Source: Acidimicrobiia bacterium (GTDB lineage: Bacteria; Actinomycetota; Acidimicrobiia; Spongiisociales; JAHEDJ01). Taken from it: a stretch of 64,000 bases of DNA. Positions within the stretch are counted from its first letter, which is position 1, and each line of letters starts with the position of its first letter. The position numbers and the translations under genes were made by a program. The notes beneath the pieces were generated by a model, which ran no database searches, had not been told where the DNA came from, and worked only from the letters and a program-made list of their open reading frames with translations. The stretch is from NCBI GenBank assembly GCA_035471805.1, contig DATIPS010000019.1, forward strand, positions 145 to 64,144, in the 5' to 3' direction. This document shows positions 1-63,757 of the stretch, in pieces.

Positions 1-215
1 TCAACCAGGATGGACCCCAACGACGAATCAGCCAACTCCACCAGCCCGCCGGATGTCTCGGATTCGGTGGTGGTGGTCGTGGGTGCCTGAGTGGTGGTGG
101 TCGAAGGAGCAGCCGTTGTCGGCGGATTGGTCGTTGCCTGTTCGTCGGCGCCACCGGCCGAGCACGCCGCCGTCACCATGGCCAGGATTGCGAGAGTGGT
201 TCCCAGTCGCCGCAT
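1..215 (-). CDS. putative lipoprotein, N-terminal part only (gene continues past window start)
   Basis: Not in ORF track (runs off edge). Minus-strand frame from ATG at 213-215 reads MRRLGTTLAILAMVTAACSAGGADEQ (signal peptide + lipobox Cys) then Thr-rich linker TTTTQAPTTTTTE typical of actinobacterial solute-binding lipoproteins. AGGAGA Shine-Dalgarno 4-5 nt upstream. G/C-rich third codon positions. The overlapping track ORF 28..228 (other frame) is Arg/His-rich and less protein-like. Confidence 0.5.
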   Translation of the reverse strand, partial: MRRLGTTLAILAMVTAACSAGGADEQATTNPPTTAAPSTTTTQAPTTTTTESETSGGLVELADSSLGSILV

Positions 216-548
216 TGTCTCTCCTCATGTATGGGGTTTCCCGTCAGTACGTAAGCAAGGGTCATTCGGTTCTCGGTGGTGCCGATCCGCTGCCCTCGCG
301 AGAACCAGGAGGCAGGTCTGACGGGTGACTTCATCGCGACTCATAAGACGACCTCGTGTCGGCCGTGCCATCGGGGGCGATTGGCTTGGCTACGAAGGGG
401 TCGGACTGTCGAATCGAACAATTCTGGTGAGAAACCCCTGATGTCGACGACGTTCTAAGCCATTCCTTTGCCCGTTCAGGGACGAGTTCAGGCGACCTGG
501 TCTGCCGAATCTATGCCGGGCCCGAAACCGGCACAATCCGTCACATGA

Positions 549-3402: not shown

Positions 3403-5349
3403 TCAACCCGTCTGCCGCTCTCTGGCGGTCACCACGATGCGGTCGACTACTTCTTCGATCGTCAGATCGGAGGTGTCGAGTATCACTGCGTCCGGTGCGG
3501 CGGTCAGCGGCGAATCCGCCCGCGTCGAGTCGATCGTGTCCCGACGGTGAAGATCGCTTGCGACCCGCTCCACATCCTCGTGACCCTGCTCAGAGGCGCG
3601 TCTGGTGGCTCGTACCTCCGGTCGTGCCGTCAGGAAGACCTTCAAGCCCGCTTCCGGGAAGACGACCGTTCCGATGTCCCGGCCTTCGACAACCGCACTG
3701 CCCCCCTGCCCGGCAACCCACTCATGCTGCTGTGCGACCATAAGTCGGCGGACCTCAGGGATGGCGGATACCGGGCTCGATGCTCTTGTCACGGCCTCCG
3801 TGCGAATCTCCGACCCCACATCACGCCCGTCGATCAGCATCCTGCCGCCCGCATACCCGAACCTGTGCCGGGAGACTTCTGCGATCACCGCAGATGTGTC
3901 GTCGAGATCAAGCGATGCTTCCAAGGCTACGAGTGTCGCCGCCCGATAGAAGGCACCGGTGTCGAGGTGTGGCAACTCGAGCCTCTCCCCCACTGCACGA
4001 CTCACGGTCGTCTTGCCCGACCCGCCGGGTCCGTCGATCGCGACAATGATTCCCATATCGGGGCGGACCATAGCCGCCGGAACTGTGACCGATTCGAGTG
4101 CGTTGAAGAATCCCGGCCACGTCTTCGCAACACATTCCGGATCCACGATCCCGACGCCCGGGGTGGCCACGCCGGCGACTGCGAATGCCATGGCGATGCG
4201 GTGGTCGTCGTACGTGGCTATTTCCCCCCCATGTGGTGAACCCCCCTCCACCACGATCGAATCAGCCGTTGTGTGTGCTGTGATGCCGATCACCGCCAGT
4301 TGCTCCCGGAGGGCCGTCAACCGGTCGGATTCCTTGATGCGGAGGTTGCCGATGTTCGAAACCGTCGACACCCCGGCGGCAAACGCACAGACAACCGCCA
4401 GCATGAGGGCGGCGTCCGGGGCGGAGTTCATGTCTCGCGACACCGCAGCCAACCGCCCAGGTCCCGAGACACGCACCCCCGTTTTAGTCCACTCGACCGA
4501 ACAACCCATATCGGCCAGGACCTCGAAGAACAACAGATCCGGTTGTCTAGAGCGAACGTCGACCCCCACGATCTCGATCGTTCCATTGCTCACTGCGGCT
4601 GCCGCGGCGGGATAAACCGCAGCCGAGACGTCCGGTTCGATCGAATAGCCCGTCCCTCGATAACCGGTAGATCCGCGAACGTGAATCATCGGTCCCGGCC
4701 GCATCTCGGCTGCGGCCCCGAATGCGGCCATGACGTCGAGCGTCATCTCAACATATGGTCGGGAGACGAGGACGTCGTTGAGGAAACGAATCTCCGTGTC
4801 GCCGTCGAGGAGAGGAGCGATCATGGCCACCGCTGAGACGTACTGACTCGACCTCGTGGCGTCGATCGTGATCGACCGTCCCACCGGGTTCTTGGCGCCG
4901 ACGGCCAGGGGCGGACCTTCGCCATCACCGAGCATCTCGACTTGCGCTCCGAGGGCGCGCAGAGCAGCTACGAGATCGGTGATCGGCCGGAGGCGCATGC
5001 GGGCACTGCCGTCTATCACGACCCGACCGGGTACGAGCGTGCTCACTGCTGTGATGAATCGAGCCGTCGTGCCGGAGTTTCCGACTTCCAGAGGTGCGCC
5101 GGGAACCGAAAGGAGACCGGCCGAGCCTTCCACTATCCACGCCTCCGGGTCATCGTCCGCGATAGCTACCCCGAGGGCCCGCAGGCAGGAGCGCATAGCC
5201 TCCGTGTCCTCGGCCTCCAGCGGGTGCAGCAGCGAACTGGGTCCACTAGCCAGGGCGGCGATCACCAGTGCGCGGTTTGTGATACTGCGCGAGCCCGGTA
5301 TCTCCAGGGATCCGGTCACCCGTCCGTGACGAACTTCGTAGGCGGTCAC
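3403..5349 (-). CDS. aroA-cmk: bifunctional fusion: 3-phosphoshikimate 1-carboxyvinyltransferase (AroA, N-terminal) + cytidylate kinase (Cmk, C-terminal)
   Basis: Single uninterrupted frame. AroA part has LEIPGSRSITNRALVIAALA, SAQYVSA, ends KTWPGFFNALESV. Continues through linker TVPAAMVRPD into MGIIVAIDGPGGSGKTTVSRA (P-loop Cmk; Met codon = cat at 4054-4056) to stop at 3403. Preferred start is GTG at 5349, overlapping rluB stop as GTGA and giving a normal-length AroA N-terminus. Track ORF extends to a start at 5403 (58-nt overlap with rluB). Confidence 0.85.
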   Translation of the reverse strand: MTAYEVRHGRVTGSLEIPGSRSITNRALVIAALASGPSSLLHPLEAEDTEAMRSCLRALGVAIADDDPEAWIVEGSAGLLSVPGAPLEVGNSGTTARFITAVSTLVPGRVVIDGSARMRLRPITDLVAALRALGAQVEMLGDGEGPPLAVGAKNPVGRSITIDATRSSQYVSAVAMIAPLLDGDTEIRFLNDVLVSRPYVEMTLDVMAAFGAAAEMRPGPMIHVRGSTGYRGTGYSIEPDVSAAVYPAAAAAVSNGTIEIVGVDVRSRQPDLLFFEVLADMGCSVEWTKTGVRVSGPGRLAAVSRDMNSAPDAALMLAVVCAFAAGVSTVSNIGNLRIKESDRLTALREQLAVIGITAHTTADSIVVEGGSPHGGEIATYDDHRIAMAFAVAGVATPGVGIVDPECVAKTWPGFFNALESVTVPAAMVRPDMGIIVAIDGPGGSGKTTVSRAVGERLELPHLDTGAFYRAATLVALEASLDLDDTSAVIAEVSRHRFGYAGGRMLIDGRDVGSEIRTEAVTRASSPVSAIPEVRRLMVAQQHEWVAGQGGSAVVEGRDIGTVVFPEAGLKVFLTARPEVRATRRASEQGHEDVERVASDLHRRDTIDSTRADSPLTAAPDAVILDTSDLTIEEVVDRIVVTARERQTG

Positions 5350-6062
5350 GGCGCGGTCGATCCGTACAGGGAACGAACTTCGTCGATCGTCAACGGACGC
5401 CACTCCCCGCTCTTCAGGTTCCCATCACGCAACGGGCCGATTGCGGAACGAAAGAGAGTGATGACGGGCGAACCGATCGCGCTGCACATGCGCCGAACTT
5501 CACGCTTGCGCCCTTCGCCCATCACGATTTCCAGCATCGTGTTCTCACCCTGTGCGTCCACGATCCTGGCGGACACGGCACGAGCCGGGCCGTCGTCGAG
5601 TTCGACACCGTCGGTCAACCTGCGGACGTCTGCCGGCTTGGGAGTCCCGTGAACGAGGGCGGTGTAGGTCTTGGTGACGCGGTTGCTGGGATGCGTTATG
5701 TGTTGTGCAAGGTCACCGTCGTTGGTCAACAGGATGAGACCTTCGGAGTCCAGGTCCAGACGTCCAACCGGAAACACCCTCGAGCCCTCCGGAACCAGGT
5801 CGACGACCGTCTTGCGACCGTGTGTGTCCTCGGCGGTGCTGACCACGCCCGCCGGTTTGTTCAACAGGTAGTACACGAGACCGGGGGCAACCGGGAGCGC
5901 TACTTCATCGACTTCCACACGCTCGACTTCGGGATCGATCTTCTGCCCCAGGTGGGCGACCGACCCGTCGACCTTGATGCGGCCGGCCCTGATCAGCTCC
6001 TCGGCAGCGCGCCGGGAGCACAGTCCGGACCGGGCTACCACCTTCTGCAACCGTTCGTTCAA
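5346..6062 (-). CDS. rluB: 23S rRNA pseudouridine synthase, RsuA/RluB family
   Basis: N-terminal S4 domain (RLQKVVARSGLCSRRAAEELIRAGRIKVDG) and catalytic motif VGRLDLDSEGLILLTNDG. Position between cmk and scpB matches mycobacterial Rv1711. Confidence 0.85.
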   Translation of the reverse strand: MNERLQKVVARSGLCSRRAAEELIRAGRIKVDGSVAHLGQKIDPEVERVEVDEVALPVAPGLVYYLLNKPAGVVSTAEDTHGRKTVVDLVPEGSRVFPVGRLDLDSEGLILLTNDGDLAQHITHPSNRVTKTYTALVHGTPKPADVRRLTDGVELDDGPARAVSARIVDAQGENTMLEIVMGEGRKREVRRMCSAIGSPVITLFRSAIGPLRDGNLKSGEWRPLTIDEVRSLYGSTAP

Positions 6063-56205: not shown

Positions 56206-56868
56206 CTAGGGGACGTATTGCTCGCGGATGAGAACGATGACGCCGTCATCCACAGTGAGCCACACGCCGGGCTGGAAATCGCGGGATGCTCGTTCCGCCA
56301 GCCAATCTGAATAAGGGACCGTCTCCTCGGTTGAGGGATCACCCGGGTTGGGTAGCCAGGTCACAGCAGCACCTTCGGCAACGGCGAGGAACCGCAGCCC
56401 GGGGTTGCCGTTACGAACGTAGTAGTCGTTGGGGGGCGGGGACTCCTTGCCGTCCTCAGCGGCCGCCAGCGCGGCAGCCTGTCCGTTGAACCAGCAGGCA
56501 AGATCAAAGTCGATCCCGCCGGTGGTCGCCTGATCGACGTACCCGAACCACTCGCCGTCCACCAGGGAGTCATCGGTTGCCGGCGTACAGCCCGAACCGG
56601 CGGCCAGCGAGTTGTCGCCCGGGTTATCGACAACGCCGTTATCCGGCTCAAGGGTGATCGGGGTATCGCCCGCTCCGCCGTCCGGTTCAACCGGGATCGG
56701 GGTATCGCCAGCTCCGCCGTCCGGTTCAACCGGGATGGGCTGGCCGACCTGTTGTTGGGTCGTTCCGCCTGTGGAATCGTCTCCGTCGGCGGTCGCCGCG
56801 TATGCAATCGACGAAACCGCCACCACCATCACCGCGACGCCCATCCATCTGATCTGAGCGCGGCTCAT
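56206..56868 (-). CDS. secreted hypothetical protein with 13-aa tandem repeat
   Basis: ATG 56866-56868 (MSRAQIRWMGVAVMVVAVSSIAYAATA signal peptide). Perfect tandem repeat IPVEPDGGAGDTP x2 (39-nt DNA repeat at 56646-56723). Track ORF's N-extension is the duplicated cytochrome c fragment and is rejected. Confidence 0.55.
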   Translation of the reverse strand: MSRAQIRWMGVAVMVVAVSSIAYAATADGDDSTGGTTQQQVGQPIPVEPDGGAGDTPIPVEPDGGAGDTPITLEPDNGVVDNPGDNSLAAGSGCTPATDDSLVDGEWFGYVDQATTGGIDFDLACWFNGQAAALAAAEDGKESPPPNDYYVRNGNPGLRFLAVAEGAAVTWLPNPGDPSTEETVPYSDWLAERASRDFQPGVWLTVDDGVIVLIREQYVP

Positions 56869-57049
56869 GGTCTTCACTTCCGCCATCCTTTCTTTTTCGT
56901 TTCGCCCAATTCGCGGATTAGACGATCGGGCGGCTCGAGAAGTTCCGACGAAGATCGAGAGGGGGAAGCCGGGTGTCAGCATCCAGGTCTGGCAGGGACT
57001 CCGCCCCGGTGACGTCAGCCCACCAGACGGCGGCGCGCCGACAACCATG

Positions 57050-57214
57050 GACCGGTCCGCACACGCTTCGGCATGCAGTTCGCTCCCGGCAGCGATCAAG
57101 GCCGGATCCGAAGGCTGGTTCCCGCCTCCGTCCGCAGCGCCAGACCCCGAGCAGGCGCTCAGAACGACAACAACCAATAGGATCGGCAAACGAAATGCTC
57201 GCAGTCGGCGGCCC
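57050..57214 (-). pseudogene. 5' fragment of cytochrome c lipoprotein gene (duplicate of 59121..59290), lacks haem site
   Basis: ~165 nt ~97% identical to the 5' end of the intact gene at 58880..59290 (encodes RRLRAFRLPILLVVVVLSACSGSGAADGGGNQPSDPALIAAGSELHAEACA). CxxCH is replaced by unrelated sequence. Abuts repeat copy 1. Confidence 0.7.
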
Positions 57215-57460
57215 TGTTCAGATCGTCGCAGGCGGACCGCTTTCCTTCGCGTCCCGACGTTCGCCTTCAACCGTCGGGACGTTTCGGAGGTCGTTGGTGG
57301 AACCCGAGGAGGCAGACAACCTCAGGGTCAAGGATCACGGCAAAGTGTTTGAAACCTGCGATTGACGCGGCTTTAGGTCGAGCTGACTACACAACCCCAG
57401 GTCAGCGCGTTATCTGGGAGGGCAGTCCATCGACCTTCCGAGCTGTCTTTGACGGATGAC
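57215..57460. repeat. ~245-bp interspersed repeat, copy 1 (candidate structured element)
   Basis: ctgttcagatcgtcgcaggcggaccgctttccttcg...ctgtctttgacggatg, ~85% identical to 61925..62170. Contains conserved hairpin gtcccgacg/cgtcgggac. Confidence 0.75.
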
Positions 57461-57521: not shown

Positions 57522-57566
57522 ACCCCAGGCCGTTGACCCGGGGTTTCTGAGTGTCGGAGGGGCGTC
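57522..57566. repeat. attL-like direct repeat: copy of tRNA-Leu 3' end + terminator hairpin
   Basis: gaaaccccaggccgttgacccggggtttctgagtgtcggagggg versus 63641-63685 gaaacccccgttgacctgggggtttctcagtgtcggagggg. 13/13 identity over agtgtcggagggg (tRNA acceptor 3' strand + T-stem) plus homologous hairpin. Confidence 0.55.
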
Positions 57567-57668: not shown

Positions 57669-58010
57669 TCAGAGTTCGAGCAGAAACCGAAGGACTCGAC
57701 CAACCTCGAAGATCGTAGAAGGACCGACCTGCCCGAGACGAGCGATCATCCGCCGTTCGGAAACGGACTTGAGGTCCTCGCATTTCGCATAGCTCAACGC
57801 CTCCAATCCGGAATCTTCTGGGTCAATCTCTATGTGTGACGGAAGATTCCGATGAGATGTCGTACAAGGAACGACCATGACCACCCCCGCCGGACTGTCA
57901 TTGAGCGCATCCGCCGAAACCACCACGGCGGGACGGCGGCCCGACTGTTCTCGTCCAACCGGCTCGCCGAAGTCAACCAGCCAGATCTCGCCTCGCCGTG
58001 GGGTGATCAC
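57669..58010 (-). CDS. mazF: MazF/PemK-family type II toxin endoribonuclease
   Basis: MITPRRGEIWLVDFGEPVGREQSGRRPAVVVS...PCTTS typical PemK/MazF fold. Overlaps antitoxin gene by 4 nt. Confidence 0.8.
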   Translation of the reverse strand: MITPRRGEIWLVDFGEPVGREQSGRRPAVVVSADALNDSPAGVVMVVPCTTSHRNLPSHIEIDPEDSGLEALSYAKCEDLKSVSERRMIARLGQVGPSTIFEVGRVLRFLLEL

Positions 58011-58243
58011 GAGCGATCGCTGGCCGCGCCATCTTCAAGGCCACGCTCATGCTCGATCTCGGCCCACGCCACTGGATCTGCTCGAAGATCGTCGAATCCA
58101 ACCTTCATCTGGTCGAAGAACAGGCGCCGTTCTAGCGCATCGGCTGCCTCATCCAGTAGCTGCGTCATCGGACGCCCGGTGGAATCGGCCAGTCTGGCAA
58201 ACCGATCTCTGGTGTTCTCGCTGACTCTGATGGTGGTGCTCAT
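58007..58243 (-). CDS. mazE: type II antitoxin (ribbon-helix-helix / MazE-like)
   Basis: 78 aa, N-terminal RHH-like MSTTIRVSENTRDRFARLA, acidic C-terminus. TATACT -10 element ends ~7 nt before the ATG on the minus strand (leaderless-like). Confidence 0.65.
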   Translation of the reverse strand: MSTTIRVSENTRDRFARLADSTGRPMTQLLDEAADALERRLFFDQMKVGFDDLRADPVAWAEIEHERGLEDGAASDRS

Positions 58244-58570: not shown

Positions 58571-58828
58571 TCAGAAGTCGAACGGGACGAGAGCTCCGTC
58601 GTTCTCGATCAACACCACCGGTTGCGCCTCCCAGGTTTCGGCATCGCCGCCCATGCCTGGGGAGTCGGCCGGCATGCCCGGCAGAGCAATCCCGATCGCA
58701 TCGGGGCGTTCATCGAGGAACTGCAGAATGGCCCCGGCCGGCACGTGACCTTCGATCACATAGCCGTCGAGCAACGCGGTGTGGCACGATCCGACGCCAT
58801 CCAGCCGTCGCAACAAAGATGCCGACAA
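58571..58828 (-). CDS. DUF411-domain (CopG-like copper-associated) protein, short or N-terminally truncated
   Basis: LDGYVIEGHVPAGAILQFLDERPDAIGIALPGMPADSPGMGG matches DUF411 core. Only 85 aa, no signal peptide or Cys motif. Bounded upstream by the cytochrome c stop. Confidence 0.5.
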   Translation of the reverse strand: MSASLLRRLDGVGSCHTALLDGYVIEGHVPAGAILQFLDERPDAIGIALPGMPADSPGMGGDAETWEAQPVVLIENDGALVPFDF

Positions 58829-58879
58829 GAACGGCCATCAATCCGGTTCGCATCCGAACAGGGTATGTGAACTGCTCGG

Positions 58880-59290
58880 CTATGGCGGATACGGCTCGAA
58901 CCCCTCCCGGCGTTGCACATCGCGCACGAAAGCGACAATGGCCTCCACCTCTGAGTCTGAGAGATCGTCGATAGGCGGCATCGGCCCGAATGACCAATGG
59001 TGCGGGGTTACCCCGCGGCGCACCGCCAACAAGAATGCCGCATCGCCGTGGTGGCCGGGTTCGTACACCTCGGACAAGTGAGAAGGACCGCGTTCCGTCC
59101 CGCGAAGGCCGGCACCATGACAGGAGGCACACGCTTCGGCATACAGTTCGCTCCCGGCAGCGATCAAGGCCGGATCCGAAGGCTGGTTCCCGCCTCCGTC
59201 CGCAGCGCCAGACCCCGAGCAGGCGCTCAGAACGACAACAACCAAAAGGATCGGCAAACGAAACGCTCGCAGTCGGCGGCCCTTCCACAT
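58880..59290 (-). CDS. class I cytochrome c lipoprotein
   Basis: Lipobox VVVLSAC. Haem motif CASCHG. Met ligand region (WSFGPMPP). Confidence 0.8.
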   Translation of the reverse strand: MWKGRRLRAFRLPILLVVVVLSACSGSGAADGGGNQPSDPALIAAGSELYAEACASCHGAGLRGTERGPSHLSEVYEPGHHGDAAFLLAVRRGVTPHHWSFGPMPPIDDLSDSEVEAIVAFVRDVQRREGFEPYPP

Positions 59291-59441
59291 TCCGCCGAGA
59301 TGCTAGCCCCGGGTGCGGTCCGGATACCCCCTACTCGCGGCAGCGCAGCCTTTAACGAATCTTGATGTTTGGCCCGGAAGTTGCTGAATGTCCATCGGCA
59401 ACACTTTGGGTCATGACATCAAAGCAAGGAGAACAACGGTG

Positions 59442-59642
59442 ATGTGGGGTTACGGAATGTGGTGGAGCAGTCTGATCTGGCTGATCCTGATCGCAGCGAT
59501 CATCTGGACACTGGTCGCCACCAATCGCCCCGGTCGATCCAACCGCGCCGGCGCACTCGAGATCCTCGAAGAGCGTCTGGCCCGCGGAGAAATCGATGCC
59601 GAGACCTACCGGGCTACCCGGACAGAACTAGAGAGGAACTGA
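59442..59642 (+). CDS. SHOCT-domain membrane protein
   Basis: TM helix (WSSLIWLILIAAIIWTLVA) + SHOCT motif LEERLARGEIDAETYRATRTELE. ATG 59442 (track ORF starts at 59388). Confidence 0.65.
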   Translation: MWGYGMWWSSLIWLILIAAIIWTLVATNRPGRSNRAGALEILEERLARGEIDAETYRATRTELERN

Positions 59643-59645
59643 GAA

Positions 59646-59972
59646 ATGAACAACAAGAGGGAACTCATCATCGCAGCTGCGACTGTCGTCGTTCTAGCGA
59701 TACCGACAATGGCCTGGGCCTTCACCGGTCCGCTGTCTGCCGATCCGCCGGCACCGAACGTTGGAGACGAATCGCTTGACGAGGGATCGTACGACTGGAT
59801 GAACGAGATGCACGACTACATGTGGAACGGCGCCACCGGCGACGGATCGTACGACTCGATGAACCAGATGCACGACTACATGTGGAACGGCGGCGAACTC
59901 CCCGAGGACTTCGCCGGCGGGCCGGCCGGATCAAGGCACCCGATGGGAGGCGGAATGTGGGGCGACCGATAG
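59646..59972 (+). CDS. secreted Met/His-rich tandem-repeat protein (putative Cu-binding)
   Basis: Signal peptide (AATVVVLAIPTMAWA). Two 21-aa repeats GSYDWMNEMHDYMWNGATGD / GSYDSMNQMHDYMWNGGELP (63-nt DNA repeat). C-terminal HPMGGGMWGD. Confidence 0.7.
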   Translation: MNNKRELIIAAATVVVLAIPTMAWAFTGPLSADPPAPNVGDESLDEGSYDWMNEMHDYMWNGATGDGSYDSMNQMHDYMWNGGELPEDFAGGPAGSRHPMGGGMWGDR

Positions 59973-60029
59973 CCCAAACGCGAACAACTGCCCTAGTGAG
60001 TCTGAATCGACAACGCCCCCTACCATCAC

Positions 60030-60731
60030 ATGGTGACTTCAAGACGAATCTTGATCGTGGACGACGAGCGGGACCTCCGAACGATGCTCTCCACGTATCT
60101 GACCGCAGATGGTTTCGAGGTCCTGCAAGCCGGCGACGGCGAGCAGGGCCTCGAGCTCGCGCTCACGAGAAAGCCCGATTTCGTCGTTCTCGATGTGGGC
60201 CTACCCGGCATCGATGGTTTCGAGGTGTTGCGGCGACTGCGAGCATCTTCAAGTGTTCCGGTGATCATGCTGACTGCCCGCGCCGAGGAGGTAGACCGAG
60301 TGGTCGGCCTTTCGGTGGGCGCCGACGATTACGTCACGAAGCCGTTCTCGCCACGAGAGCTGGTTGCACGAATCACTGCAGTACTCCGACGTACCGACCG
60401 CGCTCCGGCAGCATCGTCGGCCGAACTGCTCGAGTTTTCCGGACTCACGATCGATGTCGGATCGCGCGAGGTCAGGTGCGATGGTCGAGAGGTCGATCTG
60501 AGCGCTCTCGAGTTCGACCTGCTGGCTGCGCTCGCACTCTCACCGCGCCGGGTCTTCACCCGGCAGCAACTCATGGAAGAGGTGTGGGGCTGGGACTACG
60601 TGGCGGTCGATCGAGTGGTGGACGTCCACATCTCGAACCTTCGCAAGACCCTGGACGACGACACGTTGAACCCACGCTTCATCGCAACCGTCCGGGGCGT
60701 CGGCTACAAGTTCATCGGTGAATCCCGATGA
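60030..60731 (+). CDS. OmpR-family response regulator (CopR/CusR-like)
   Basis: Receiver domain (ILIVDDE...VVLDVGLPGIDGF) + winged-helix DNA-binding domain (RRVFTRQQLMEEVWGWDYV...RGVGYKF). Confidence 0.9.
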   Translation: MVTSRRILIVDDERDLRTMLSTYLTADGFEVLQAGDGEQGLELALTRKPDFVVLDVGLPGIDGFEVLRRLRASSSVPVIMLTARAEEVDRVVGLSVGADDYVTKPFSPRELVARITAVLRRTDRAPAASSAELLEFSGLTIDVGSREVRCDGREVDLSALEFDLLAALALSPRRVFTRQQLMEEVWGWDYVAVDRVVDVHISNLRKTLDDDTLNPRFIATVRGVGYKFIGESR

Positions 60732-61912
60732 AGAGGTTCACCGGCAAACTCTGGACACGCCTACTGGCAGCGCAGCTACTCATCATTGCACTGGGTGCCG
60801 TAACGCTCATCGTTCTCATCGAACTCCTCGCGCCGACGTTCTTCGCCAACGCCCTCCGCACCATGAACTCGATGATGGCCGACCCGAGTCACATGGGCGA
60901 CATGATGACCGGTAGCTCATCGACCGGACAGTTCACACCGACCGTCCAAGCGGATCTCGAAGCGTCGTTCGACAGTTCGTTCCGCCGCGCCCTGGCAATC
61001 TCCCTGGCCGTCGCCGGGATTGCCGCCATTGGGACAACGGCCTACGCAACGCAGCGGATACTTCGGCCGCTTCAGGCCGTGAGGTCCGCAGCCCACAAAC
61101 TCGCCGACGGTGCCTACGACCAGCGGATCGATCTCCCGCACGAGCAGGAGCTCGCCGACCTGGCTCGGGATGTAAATGCCTTGGCAGAGACCCTGGCAAC
61201 GACAGAGGCTCGCCGCGTCCGCCTCATTTCCGAAGTCGCTCACGAGCTGCGCACTCCACTAACCACGCTCGAGGGGTATCTCGAAGGCCTCCTCGACGGC
61301 GTGTTCGAGCCGAGCAACGACGTTTTTGCCGCGTCCGGGCGCGAGGTTCGCCGCCTCAAGCGTCTCGCATCCGATTTGTCCGAACTCTCACGCGCCGAGG
61401 AGGGTGCTCAATCCCTTCAACTCAAGTCGTTCGACGTCGGAGCTTTGACTCGCGAAGTCGCGGGGAATCTGAGGACCCAGGCGAATGCCAAGGGAGTCCG
61501 GTTGATGGTGGCCGATGGACCGGGACTGCTGCCCGTGACGGCCGACCGGGATCGAGTTGGGCAGGTGCTCACCAATGTGATCGGCAACGCAATCAGTTAC
61601 ACCGACGAGGGAGGCCAAATCACAGTCGGGATGACGGGCAACGACGATTGGGTGACGATCGCGGTTGCAGACTCCGGGCGCGGATTGAGTGCCGATCAGC
61701 AGTCAGCGGTCTTCGAACGTTTCTACCGGGGCGACCCCACTGGTCCGGGGGGAAGCGGAATCGGCCTCACCATCGCCCGCGCCATTGCCCGCAGGCACGG
61801 CGGCGATATCGAGGCGGACTCACCCGGGCCGGGAAAGGGTTCGACGTTCACGATCCTTCTCCCACGCAGTACAGCCGACGACACGGCACGTGGGAGCTTG
61901 GCCGGCGACTGA
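60728..61912 (+). CDS. sensor histidine kinase (CopS/CusS-like)
   Basis: Two TMs + periplasmic loop containing a Met-rich stretch (MNSMMADPSHMGDMMTG). HAMP. HisKA H-box (EVAHELRTPLTT). HATPase_c N, G1, G2 boxes (GSGIGLTIARAIA). 4-nt overlap with RR. Confidence 0.9.
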   Translation: MKRFTGKLWTRLLAAQLLIIALGAVTLIVLIELLAPTFFANALRTMNSMMADPSHMGDMMTGSSSTGQFTPTVQADLEASFDSSFRRALAISLAVAGIAAIGTTAYATQRILRPLQAVRSAAHKLADGAYDQRIDLPHEQELADLARDVNALAETLATTEARRVRLISEVAHELRTPLTTLEGYLEGLLDGVFEPSNDVFAASGREVRRLKRLASDLSELSRAEEGAQSLQLKSFDVGALTREVAGNLRTQANAKGVRLMVADGPGLLPVTADRDRVGQVLTNVIGNAISYTDEGGQITVGMTGNDDWVTIAVADSGRGLSADQQSAVFERFYRGDPTGPGGSGIGLTIARAIARRHGGDIEADSPGPGKGSTFTILLPRSTADDTARGSLAGD

Positions 61913-61924
61913 GGGCTTCGCGGC

Positions 61925-62170
61925 CTGTTCACATCGTCGCAGGCGGACCGCTTTCCTTCGCGGCCCGACGTTCGCCTTCCACCGTCGGGACGTTGCGGTG
62001 GTCGTTGGTGGAAACCGAGGAGGCAGACAACCTCGGGGTCAAGGAATACGACAGAGTGTCTGAGACCTGCAATCGACGCAGCTTTGAGGTCGAGCTGGCT
62101 ACACAACTCCAGGTCAGCGCGTTATCTGGGAGGGCAGTTGATCAACATTTCGAGCTGTCCTTGACGGATG
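61925..62170. repeat. ~245-bp interspersed repeat, copy 2 (immediately downstream of HK stop)
   Basis: See copy 1. Begins 13 nt after HK TGA. Track ORFs 61648..62235 and 56973..57365 lie in it but differ by non-conservative substitutions. Confidence 0.75.
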
Positions 62171-62276
62171 GTGACGGTTTAGCCCTTATTTGGCCCGGTG
62201 TGTCAACCAGAAAGTGGCTAGGCAACTCTGTCTGACGGGTGTTCAATCGGAATAGAACGCAACCGAGAGGGAGTGA

Positions 62277-62621
62277 GTGTCTCTGATGCTGGAATGGATC
62301 TACGCTCGGATCAAGTTCTTCGTTCTTTGCATGGGTCTGTGGGCAGCGGCCGTATGTGGTTTTGTCCTGACGGCAACTTTGAATCAGATTGCGTCTGAAC
62401 AGGCTGTGATTGTGCCTCTGTGGCCTTTCGGCGATGTGGTCTTTGAACCGCCTCTTCGCTACCTGGCGATTTCTCTCGTGTTTCTGGGGCTTGGCATTGG
62501 TCTCGCGATCCCGTTCAACTCTGAGGTCGGCCTGGAACCGGTGCGGAGACAGTGGGCCAAGATCTTGGCCGCTTCTATGCACGGTTTGAAGCGTATCCTG
62601 ACTGCACCTTTCAATCGATAG
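62277..62621 (+). CDS. hypothetical membrane protein (lower-GC ORFan)
   Basis: 114 aa, three predicted TMs. Noticeably A/T-richer codons than surroundings. Confidence 0.4.
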   Translation: MSLMLEWIYARIKFFVLCMGLWAAAVCGFVLTATLNQIASEQAVIVPLWPFGDVVFEPPLRYLAISLVFLGLGIGLAIPFNSEVGLEPVRRQWAKILAASMHGLKRILTAPFNR

Positions 62622-63642: not shown

Positions 63643-63668
63643 GAAACCCCCGTTGACCTGGGGGTTTC
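63643..63668 (-). terminator. intrinsic terminator hairpin 3' of tRNA-Leu
   Basis: gaaaccccc-gttgacct-gggggtttc (9-bp stem), 4 nt beyond tRNA 3' end. Followed on minus strand by ttcttgctgt. Confidence 0.55.
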
Positions 63669-63672
63669 TCAG

Positions 63673-63757
<85 letters not shown>

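Follow-up and report, generated by a model that had tools for sequence, protein, structure and literature searches.

A conserved four-gene operon of an Acidimicrobiia bacterium encoding a secreted Met/Trp-rich repeat protein, a SHOCT-like membrane protein and a Met-loop sensor kinase: a probable Cu(I)/Ag(I) sensing and buffering system

The DNA analysed here is a stretch of 64,000 nucleotides (nt) from an Acidimicrobiia bacterium (assembly GCA_035471805.1, contig DATIPS010000019.1, positions 145–64,144), hereafter called the window. On its forward strand, 59442–61912 was found to hold four intact, closely packed genes, which encode in this order a SHOCT-like membrane protein, a secreted repeat protein, an OmpR-type response regulator and a HAMP-containing histidine kinase. 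The stop codon of the SHOCT gene and the start of the repeat gene are separated by 3 nt, 57 nt lie between the repeat gene and the regulator gene, and the kinase start overlaps the regulator stop by 4 nt (ATGA). Judged from sequence, these genes probably form a self-regulated extracytoplasmic Cu(I)/Ag(I) sensing and buffering operon, the main output of which would be a disordered Met/His/Trp sponge. An initial annotation had proposed a module of four open reading frames (ORFs) at 59388–61912, and all four were recovered intact on the forward strand. The first gene had been called there as an 84-amino-acid (aa) ORF from 59388; this was corrected to 66 aa from 59442, since 59388 lies inside a conserved upstream box, the relatives' gene calls agree with the shorter form and a ribosome-binding site, AAGGAGAA, precedes the ATG at 59442.

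The secreted repeat protein (108 aa, 59646–59972, forward strand) begins with a signal peptide ending in AWA, for which cleavage was predicted after residue 25. The mature part of 83 aa contains two cores of the form W/S-M-N-x-M-H-D-Y-M-W and the tail HPMGGGMWGDR. In the DNA, the repeats form a tandem array at 59780–59892 on the forward strand (60-nt unit, 1.9 copies, 94 % identical, Tandem Repeats Finder score 205) encoding two 20-aa units, and from this 60-nt unit the previously given period of 21 aa was revised to 20 aa. Composition was compared with that of the 32 other genes of the window. Met was strongly enriched in the mature protein, at 8 of 83 residues against a background of 1.4 % (P=2.6e-5), and Trp was also enriched (4 of 83, P=0.01). 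Asp and Glu together number 15 and Lys and Arg two, with no Lys and no Cys. The pattern had been described as densely Met/His/Trp/Asp; enrichment was found for Met and Trp and was absent for His (P=0.31), and Met/Trp/Asp, with a single His in each repeat, is a more accurate description of the pattern.

Structure prediction of the repeat protein with AlphaFold, using an eight-sequence family alignment, gave a mean predicted local distance difference test score (pLDDT) of 49.7 and a predicted template modelling score of 0.18. The only predicted helices were the signal peptide and residues 48–61 and 68–80, the latter two falling exactly on the repeats. On a helical wheel of the core, M2, M5, H6 and M9 lie at 140–240 degrees, placing three Met and one His within a 100-degree arc, with Trp at 100 and 280 degrees and Asp/Asn/Glu at 300–40 degrees. 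If helical, the core would thus have a face of thioether and imidazole groups bordered by indoles, the rest of the helix being acidic. An EF-hand or Ca/lanthanide site in DGSYDSMNQMHD was considered and rejected, as the Asp/Gly part varies in the family (e.g. PADATWMNDMHDYM) and the conserved part is M..MH..MW. The protein had been thought unlike the CopC and CusF folds, which agrees with the absence of any Pfam hit to CusF (PF11604) or CopC (PF04234) at E≤0.1 and of beta structure in the AlphaFold model. The suggestion of a small new metallochaperone family was upheld as regards a family with no described relative; the term metallochaperone was not, since with a pLDDT of 50 and no globular fold a disordered sponge or buffer fits the protein better.

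Searches for relatives of the repeat protein returned 7 hits among 5.8 billion proteins, and a profile search of 1.84 billion cluster representatives yielded 22 repeat-family clusters at E≤1e-3, none of them meaningfully named. No match was found by tblastn among 72,556 plasmids. Hidden Markov model searches, which the initial annotation had suggested, matched the protein to no characterised family, metal or non-metal, in Pfam or NCBIfam; the 22 family members likewise gave no relevant Pfam family at E≤1, and nothing relevant was found in the PDB either by sequence or by family profile. The family is rare: billions of proteins contained approximately 20 clusters, almost all of them from assembled metagenomes, and its ecological reach looks narrow. 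One member, P0007 (locus L004), is labelled ‘phage terminase large subunit-like protein’ in one source, a label for which its sequence gives no support.

Members of the family share a signal peptide and one to five copies of a 10-residue core, W-M-x-x-M-H-D-x-M-W, and most also carry a Gly/Met/Trp tail of the form HPMGGGMWGxR or GGCGMWGGR. The consensus was derived from 70 repeats in 26 proteins, anchored on the first Met (position 2). Across these repeats position 1 was Trp in 77 %, position 5 Met in 93 %, position 6 His in 96 %, position 7 Asp in 73 %, position 9 Met in 77 % and position 10 Trp in 86 %; position 8 was Tyr or Ser. In one member, P0017 (L007, 923–1522), a class I cytochrome c domain is inserted between the repeats and the GGCGMWGGR tail. 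Through this natural fusion, the repeat family is linked in function to the cytochrome c lipoproteins, which usually lie divergent to it.

The first gene (59442–59642, forward strand) encodes a bitopic membrane protein of 66 aa, called in relatives at 66–67 aa, with a Met/Trp-rich N-terminus (MWGYGMWW), one transmembrane helix, a basic stretch and a C-terminal SHOCT-like domain that is predicted to be cytoplasmic. Its match to PF09851 falls just short of the threshold (E=2.2e-5, 24.5 bits against a gathering cut-off of 27 bits, model positions 2–27 of 28), and its relatives have weak or faint precomputed SHOCT hits. Known SHOCT-domain small membrane proteins share with this protein a single membrane helix and, C-terminal to it, a short helical SHOCT-like motif; the protein of the window differs in scoring below the Pfam gathering threshold and in belonging to a narrow subfamily tied to the repeat-protein operon. 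This subfamily comprises 16 clusters (≥71 % identity) among 5.8 billion proteins, a rarity comparable with that of the repeat family, and searches with it again arrived at this operon. Wherever a locus is sequenced far enough, the SHOCT gene lies directly upstream of the repeat gene, with the distant L011 as the one exception. Small SHOCT membrane proteins adjoin archaeal copper islands and are silver-induced in Haloferax (PMC5498576, PMC10694973).

The third gene (60030–60731, forward strand) encodes an OmpR/PhoB-type response regulator of 233 aa (Response_reg 8.8e-32, Trans_reg_C 1.9e-28). The fourth (60728–61912, forward strand) encodes a histidine kinase of 394 aa, with a first transmembrane helix, an outer loop of approximately 51 aa, a second transmembrane helix and HAMP, HisKA and HATPase_c domains. 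All five Pfam domains of the pair exceeded their gathering scores, as for a generic OmpR/PhoB-type two-component system. The best NCBIfam score of the regulator was to MtrA (246 bits, cut-off 300); against cztR_silR_copR (TIGR01387) it reached 177.4 bits vs a cut-off of 279.2, and the MtrA, PhoB and OmpR models all scored higher than this and below their own cut-offs. The kinase scored 213 of a required 500 bits against BaeS and 161.9 of 292.55 against cztS_silS_copS (TIGR01386). Its HisKA/HATPase core is 35–45 % identical to those of many kinases. The best annotated relatives were a kinase on a Streptomyces mirabilis plasmid (45 % identity) and one in a plasmid cluster of Corynebacterium marinum (38.7 % over 84 % of the length), which also encodes a CueP-family protein, a multicopper oxidase and a copper P-type ATPase. 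Streptomyces and Deinococcus kinases scored similarly to or above the C. marinum kinase when compared with that of the window.

When the sensor region of the kinase (residues 1–137) was used as the query, only four close matches were obtained, too few for a wider view of Met-loop kinases. The extracytoplasmic loop between the two hydrophobic stretches carries the Met cluster MNSMMADPSHMGDMMTG at residues 46–62 (60863–60913, forward strand), in agreement with what had been reported for this loop, and residues 36–86 include 6 Met in 51 residues (P=8.6e-5). The loop was Met-rich in every related kinase that was read, namely those of L001, L005, L007, L008, L011, L015/16 and L017. Related loops (RTMNSMMADPSHMGDMMGDMATG, QHMNDMMMDPDMMGDTMMGNMMG, QQMNEMMADPDMADMMGGMMG, RSMNEMMMVPDMMMNGMISGRDMPDM, RSMNEMMANPDSMADMMGGGM and QRMNDMMVDPAMGDMMGNMMG) follow the pattern MN[SED]MM-x-[DNV]P..M.DMMG, with variation in length and detail. 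On plasmid pI of S. mirabilis P16B-1 (L012, 4325–7032), the two-component system with the 45 % identical kinase has a Met/His-rich loop, MGMLDEDHGMGMAATM, and is preceded by an unrelated secreted protein of 162 aa that carries HDNDGCHGGGMHGM close to the N-terminus and ends in MTHPSGTGMGGMGHGMGR, a tail similar to HPMGGGMWGDR. A layout in which a secreted Met/His protein precedes a Met-loop kinase may extend beyond the repeat family.

Upstream of the operon, a conserved 43-nt box, CCTTTAACGAATCTTGATGTTTGGCCCGGAAGTTGCTGAATGT, was found at 59349–59391 on the forward strand. It is the sole conserved block in the intergenic regions upstream of the SHOCT gene, which have otherwise diverged (window, L001, L007 and L008). 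The box contains half-sites TTWAC and TTKAYG at a spacing of 11 nt, which are clearest in L008 (TTACCAAAGCT and TTACGTTTGGC). When the window and L001–L013 were scanned with a position weight matrix, the box was found once per locus, immediately ahead of the SHOCT gene, and a weak form of it precedes the distant family member in L009; the same scan returned no second site that would indicate further regulon targets. We infer from these features that the box serves as both the site of the regulator and the core promoter of the operon, in which case the operon's own products would be the direct output of the system. Scanning of 58.5–62.4 kb gave no sigma-70 promoter-like site and a single terminator-like hairpin, located within the divergent cytochrome c gene cytc1 and not above shuffled-sequence level.

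The order SHOCT, repeat protein, regulator and kinase was kept in approximately 20 related contigs, comprising L001 (with L005/L006 from a related assembly), L002, L003, L004, L007, L008, L014–L022 and L024–L029. In L011 the repeat protein, regulator and kinase occur without SHOCT. The genes surrounding these loci were examined for recurrent neighbours. One or two divergent cytochrome c lipoproteins were found in the window and in L001, L002, L008, L015/16, L019, L020, L027 and L028, and MerR regulators of the metal type adjoin the operon in L001, L017, L020, L022 and L027. A neighbouring P1B ATPase, with a CPH motif and an N-terminus rich in His and Met, scores 572 and 579 bits on the ‘copper-translocating’ model TIGR01511, for which the cut-off is 397. 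Neighbours of relatives also include a CopI-like cupredoxin (below cut-off), and in L007 a full-length DUF411/CopG gene lies divergent to the same operon. Taken together, the genes found next to the operon in relatives suggest a part in the handling of copper or silver.

Some of these neighbourhoods have features of their own. Downstream of the kinase, a conserved cluster in L001 (7567–11203), L005 (2436–6053) and L008 (3765–7614) encodes a small membrane protein, a PCYCGC protein, a CuA-like cupredoxin, a Fer4_5 membrane protein of 467 aa and a cupredoxin/cytochrome c protein. This PCYCGC-cupredoxin-Fer4_5 cluster, which is not present in the window, may act as a redox module linked to copper. 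In L001, the PCYCGC protein gave a sub-cut-off hit to the NCBIfam model ‘CYCXC family (seleno)protein’. In L007, the DUF411/CopG lipoprotein (45–533, reverse strand) has an in-frame TGA at the first Cys of its CxCC motif (VHQAPG*GCCTGW), which could be a selenocysteine codon, a sequencing error or the mark of a pseudogene.

The window itself is a chromosome segment with a Pup-proteasome system (two Pup-ligase family genes and a proteasomal ATPase) and ordinary housekeeping genes. Divergent to the operon lies cytc1 (58880–59290, reverse strand), which encodes a class I cytochrome c lipoprotein of 136 aa with a PF00034 match (3.2e-11), an LSAC lipobox and a CASCH haem motif, as the initial annotation had reported. 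As a divergent partner it is conserved in L001, L002, L006, L008, L019, L020, L027 and L028. Beyond it, a second cytochrome c gene, cytc2, is reduced to its first 18 codons (58800–58853, reverse strand; translation MRTGLMAVLVGIFVATAG), which encode the signal peptide and are cut at the lipobox, to be followed by out-of-family sequence. The remnant abuts a 3′ fragment of a DUF411/CopG gene (58571–58797), left as an 85-aa ORF at 58571–58828 on the reverse strand with a PF04214 match of 1.2e-24. This ORF begins past the CxCC region, which is present as G*GCC in the homologue of L007, and the earlier description of a DUF411 (CopG-like) remnant is thus accurate, the N-terminal CxCC half being gone. 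Homology of L001 to the window is limited to 58798–61935, and L002 (GCA_041553835.1) is 99.4 % identical to 58798–62401; left of 58798 the window departs from both.

Between 56973 and 57562 on the forward strand, a degraded second copy of the locus was identified. It consists of a cytc2 fragment (56973–57058), the first 157 nt of cytc1 at 98 % identity (57059–57215), a non-coding segment B (57208–57458) and the 3′ end of a tRNA-Leu with its downstream hairpin (57530–57562). Segment B is the duplicate of segment B′, which directly follows the kinase stop (61920–62170, forward strand; 89.7 % over 252 nt), matches no Rfam family and folds in an ordinary manner (z=−0.37). The 2.64-kb operon is exactly absent from the degraded copy, and the point of junction falls within GCGGCC(C)T, a microhomology that also occurs at both operon ends (59276–59283 and 61920–61926). 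Insertion of the operon in the manner of a transposon could be envisaged from the 8-nt GCGGCC(C)T at both ends; no transposase was found and a repeat scan of 55–64 kb listed no terminal inverted repeats, and microhomology deletion in the degraded copy would account for the pattern more simply. Between the two copies, near the partial tRNA-Leu repeat, lie genes for a MazF toxin (57669–58010, reverse strand; PemK_toxin 2.6e-25) and an antitoxin with a weak ribbon-helix-helix match (58007–58243, reverse strand).

The gene set had been said to ride on a tRNA-Leu islet. A tRNA-Leu(GAG) gene was indeed found at one border (63672–63757, reverse strand), and 63650–63683, covering the last 12 nt or so of the tRNA and 22 nt downstream, matches 57530–57562, 6.1 kb away, over 34 nt at 91 % identity, so that a repeat of the 3′ end marks the other border. 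The remaining hallmarks of an islet were not seen: no ORF in 56.2–63.5 kb matched integrase, recombinase or transposase families, the guanine-plus-cytosine content of the region (0.54–0.68) is like that of the flanks, and in none of 12 related loci does a tRNA lie beside the module. Repeated insertion or recombination events at tRNA-Leu with subsequent decay would plausibly produce the duplicated pattern. Two further observations concern the window alone. A secreted protein with no family match is encoded at 56206–56886 on the reverse strand and contains the tandem peptide IPVEPDGGAGDTP twice; a longer 354-aa ORF call over this interval is a chimera with the duplicated 5′ end of cytc1. At 3403–5403 on the reverse strand, 5-enolpyruvylshikimate-3-phosphate synthase (AroA) and cytidylate kinase (Cmk) are fused in a single ORF of 666 aa.

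Cys-free Met/His sites with Trp capping are a means of holding Cu(I) and Ag(I) in oxidising compartments. SilE is disordered and becomes helical on binding Ag+ through His/Met motifs at i, i+3/4 spacing (PMC5008109), PcoE is a Cu(I)/Ag(I) sponge under the control of CusRS, and CusF holds Cu(I) by one His and two Met with involvement of a Trp (PMC7558416). The repeat protein is similar to SilE and PcoE in being small, exported, Cys-free and predicted to be disordered, with helix-prone repeats and Met/His at i, i+3/4 spacing, and its gene adjoins a candidate copper/silver two-component system as SilE and PcoE are themselves controlled by one. It differs from them in that no sequence relationship was detected (Pfam, NCBIfam and PDB), and in having true tandem repeats of variable copy number and a conserved Gly/Met/Trp tail. 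The SilE motifs are MxxHxxxxxxHxxM and HxxMxxxHxxM, whereas the core of the repeat protein has one His, three Met and two flanking Trp. The repeat gene further differs in being co-transcribed with the sensor genes and a SHOCT protein, in an actinobacterial host with no outer-membrane efflux pump to feed. The resemblance to SilE/PcoE would thus be one of working mode and not of family membership.

The two-component system was compared with known copper sensors in the same way. CopS of Corynebacterium glutamicum is copper-responsive and has a short His/Met loop of 31 aa, and CopR binds its own upstream intergenic region and, on copper, activates divergent clusters, the driven cluster beginning with a secreted protein (PMC3140484). 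The pair in the window is like CopRS in combining an OmpR-type regulator with a two-helix HAMP kinase and a short Met/His extracytoplasmic loop. The C. marinum cluster, which from its gene content would be the CopRS counterpart, has a kinase loop (HDHMLMTGREDPSLELFH, approximately 30 aa) with no similarity to the Met cluster of the window. In Corynebacterium, CueP, a multicopper oxidase, TlpA and a Cu-ATPase are targeted, and no repeat protein or SHOCT is among them; conversely, neither CueP nor a multicopper oxidase was found among the listed or screened genes of the related loci. With CusS/CopS/SilS (TIGR01386) and CusF, the proposed ligand and logic would be shared, periplasmic Cu(I)/Ag(I) being sensed and a Met/His/Trp binder induced. 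The kinase of the window differs from CusS/CopS/SilS in having a 51-aa loop in place of a folded periplasmic domain of approximately 150 aa, and the repeat protein differs from CusF in having neither its beta-barrel nor a Pfam match to it. Literature searches on SHOCT with copper and on methionine-rich sensor kinases in Actinobacteria did not turn up a system of this kind. Within the reach of these searches, no description was found of the repeat family, of its fixed pairing with SHOCT or of the matching Met motifs in the sensor loop.

From gene content, motifs and comparison with these systems we infer the ligand, its binding, the direction of signalling, the interaction of regulator and box and the role as a sponge. 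Cu(I) is the most likely metal, and Ag(I) would act as a cross-ligand. Either would bind the thioether cluster of the kinase loop and shift the kinase/phosphatase balance through HAMP, after which the phosphorylated regulator would bind the box at 59349–59391 and raise transcription of all four genes. The main effector would be the Sec-exported, very acidic, lysine-free repeat protein of 83 aa, presumably disordered when alone. Its helical cores would form Met/His sites capped by aromatic residues, and these sites and the HPMGGGMWGxR tail would sequester metal outside the membrane, as SilE/PcoE sponges do. The protein would possibly also pass metal to an adjacent c-type cytochrome or to CopG-type redox proteins. 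The SHOCT protein would be an obligate partner, for which the simplest role would be that of an adaptor in the membrane that acts on either the kinase or the repeat protein.

Several observations weigh against this sensing and buffering role. His is not enriched in the mature repeat protein (3 of 83 residues, one per repeat and one in the tail; P=0.31), the His of the kinase loop is not conserved among relatives, and Val or Ile replaces the third repeat Met (position 9) in 11 of the 70 repeats. Met-rich loops are also able to sense oxidants. Regulator and kinase fall below every NCBIfam cut-off, including those of the heavy-metal subfamily models, and the proposed link between box and regulator is drawn from conservation and position. 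The window lacks the ATPase, MerR and cupredoxin part of the neighbourhood, its sole copper-family gene being the DUF411 fragment. The MerR of L001 has a Cys at a position which we take to be Ser in CueR-type Cu(I) sensors, and its best NCBIfam match, below the cut-off, is CadR/PbrR; together these make a divalent metal possible for the MerR part of the cluster.

Alternative explanations were weighed against the same data. In a variant with the same metal, which we consider unlikely, the repeat protein would be mainly a co-sensor or modulator of the kinase, and the SHOCT protein would complete a three-part sensory complex. The repeat protein would present metal to the Met loop, or occupy the loop until metal arrives, and CpxP acting on CpxA provides a model. 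Gene order favours this variant in that the repeat gene is always immediately upstream of regulator and kinase, even in L011 where SHOCT is missing, and the related Streptomyces two-component system is preceded by a different secreted Met/His protein with a similar tail. The loop motifs MNSMM and HMGDMMTG resemble WMNEMH and HPMGGGMWG of the repeat protein, a likeness read by eye with no statistic, which may however reflect a mere shared ligand. Direct signalling of SilE to SilS has been held plausible (PMC5008109), yet a copy number of one to five between close relatives suits the capacity of a sponge better than a stoichiometric partner.

A further-reaching version, also regarded as having a rather small chance of being right, would make the repeat protein, SHOCT and the Met-loop kinase one extracytoplasmic Cu(I) sensory and redox unit. 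Cu(I) captured at the cell surface by the disordered repeat protein would be presented to the kinase loop, whose motifs would mimic the two of that protein, and to the adjacent c-type cytochrome, with which the repeat protein is fused in one lineage; the metal would thereby be sensed and oxidised, the electrons passing to the respiratory chain. If true, this would constitute a cuprous oxidase pathway independent of multicopper oxidase and would give the first function assigned to a SHOCT protein.

It is improbable that the system senses oxidants, with the loop Met being oxidised by reactive chlorine or oxygen species and the secreted protein acting as a sacrificial scavenger. Met is the conserved feature of the loop and its His is dispensable, as such a sensor would allow, and E. 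coli HprS reportedly senses through Met residues of its own. The regulator also gave a sub-threshold match to HprR, at 161 against 353 bits. A preprint describes E. coli HprSR (YedVW) as sensing HOCl and controlling the methionine sulfoxide reductase genes msrPQ (bioRxiv 10.1101/2021.09.09.459708), whereas no methionine sulfoxide reductase (Msr), MsrPQ or thiol-repair gene was found in the loci that were listed or BLAST-screened against a small reference set. The recurrent neighbours are instead a copper-type ATPase, MerR, cupredoxins and CopG, and the fixed M-x-x-M-H-x-x-M-W spacing with flanking Trp suits a coordination site and not a generic Met sink.

A different metal ligand, such as Hg(II), Cd(II), Zn(II), Ni(II) or Au, is quite improbable. 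The MerR proteins of L001 and L027 score best or nearly best on CadR/PbrR and MerR models, with Cys at the CueR Ser position, and the mature repeat protein is very acidic (Asp and Glu 15 of 83), both of which would suit such a ligand. The ATPase also passes a cadmium-family subfamily model (383 bits, cut-off 313.5), but it scores far higher on the copper model, and its CPH motif and His-rich N-terminus are as in CopB-type pumps. Cupredoxins and DUF411/CopG are copper proteins, and Cys-free, thioether-dominated sites are typical of Cu(I)/Ag(I) in oxidising compartments (PMC7558416).

That the repeat protein binds haem or partners a cytochrome through Met/His axial ligands, in a system responding to haem or to the state of the respiratory chain, is very improbable: no divergent neighbour is as constant as the c-type cytochrome lipoproteins, a cytochrome c domain is fused into one family member and cytochrome c maturation genes lie just upstream in L011, but a Met-only loop of variable length is unlike a haem pocket, no haem uptake, degradation or export gene was present in any locus, and cytochrome c biogenesis genes also adjoin the Corynebacterium kinase/regulator pair in a copper-gene cluster, so such a neighbourhood is no argument against copper.

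The in-silico case for a Cu(I)/Ag(I) sensing and buffering operon is coherent. The operon would work like SilE/PcoE together with a Cop/Cus-type two-component system and yet be a member of neither, since no homology was detected, kinase and regulator score below the cut-offs and the sensor is a loop of 51 aa. Its proposed function is as expected, and what is new is a protein family and a sensor architecture doing a familiar job. If this is confirmed, the box, regulator and kinase would form a compact cassette usable as part of a Cu/Ag biosensor, and the short repeat peptide would offer a simple model for Cu(I)-Met-Trp chemistry. A thioether-rich loop would be established as a minimal kinase sensor, and a SHOCT-domain protein would gain its first concrete functional context. 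The repeat proteins would then represent a new family of extracytoplasmic soft-metal binders, for which no family model or PDB hit shared with SilE/PcoE was detected and which have a Met/His/Trp helix-face motif of their own.

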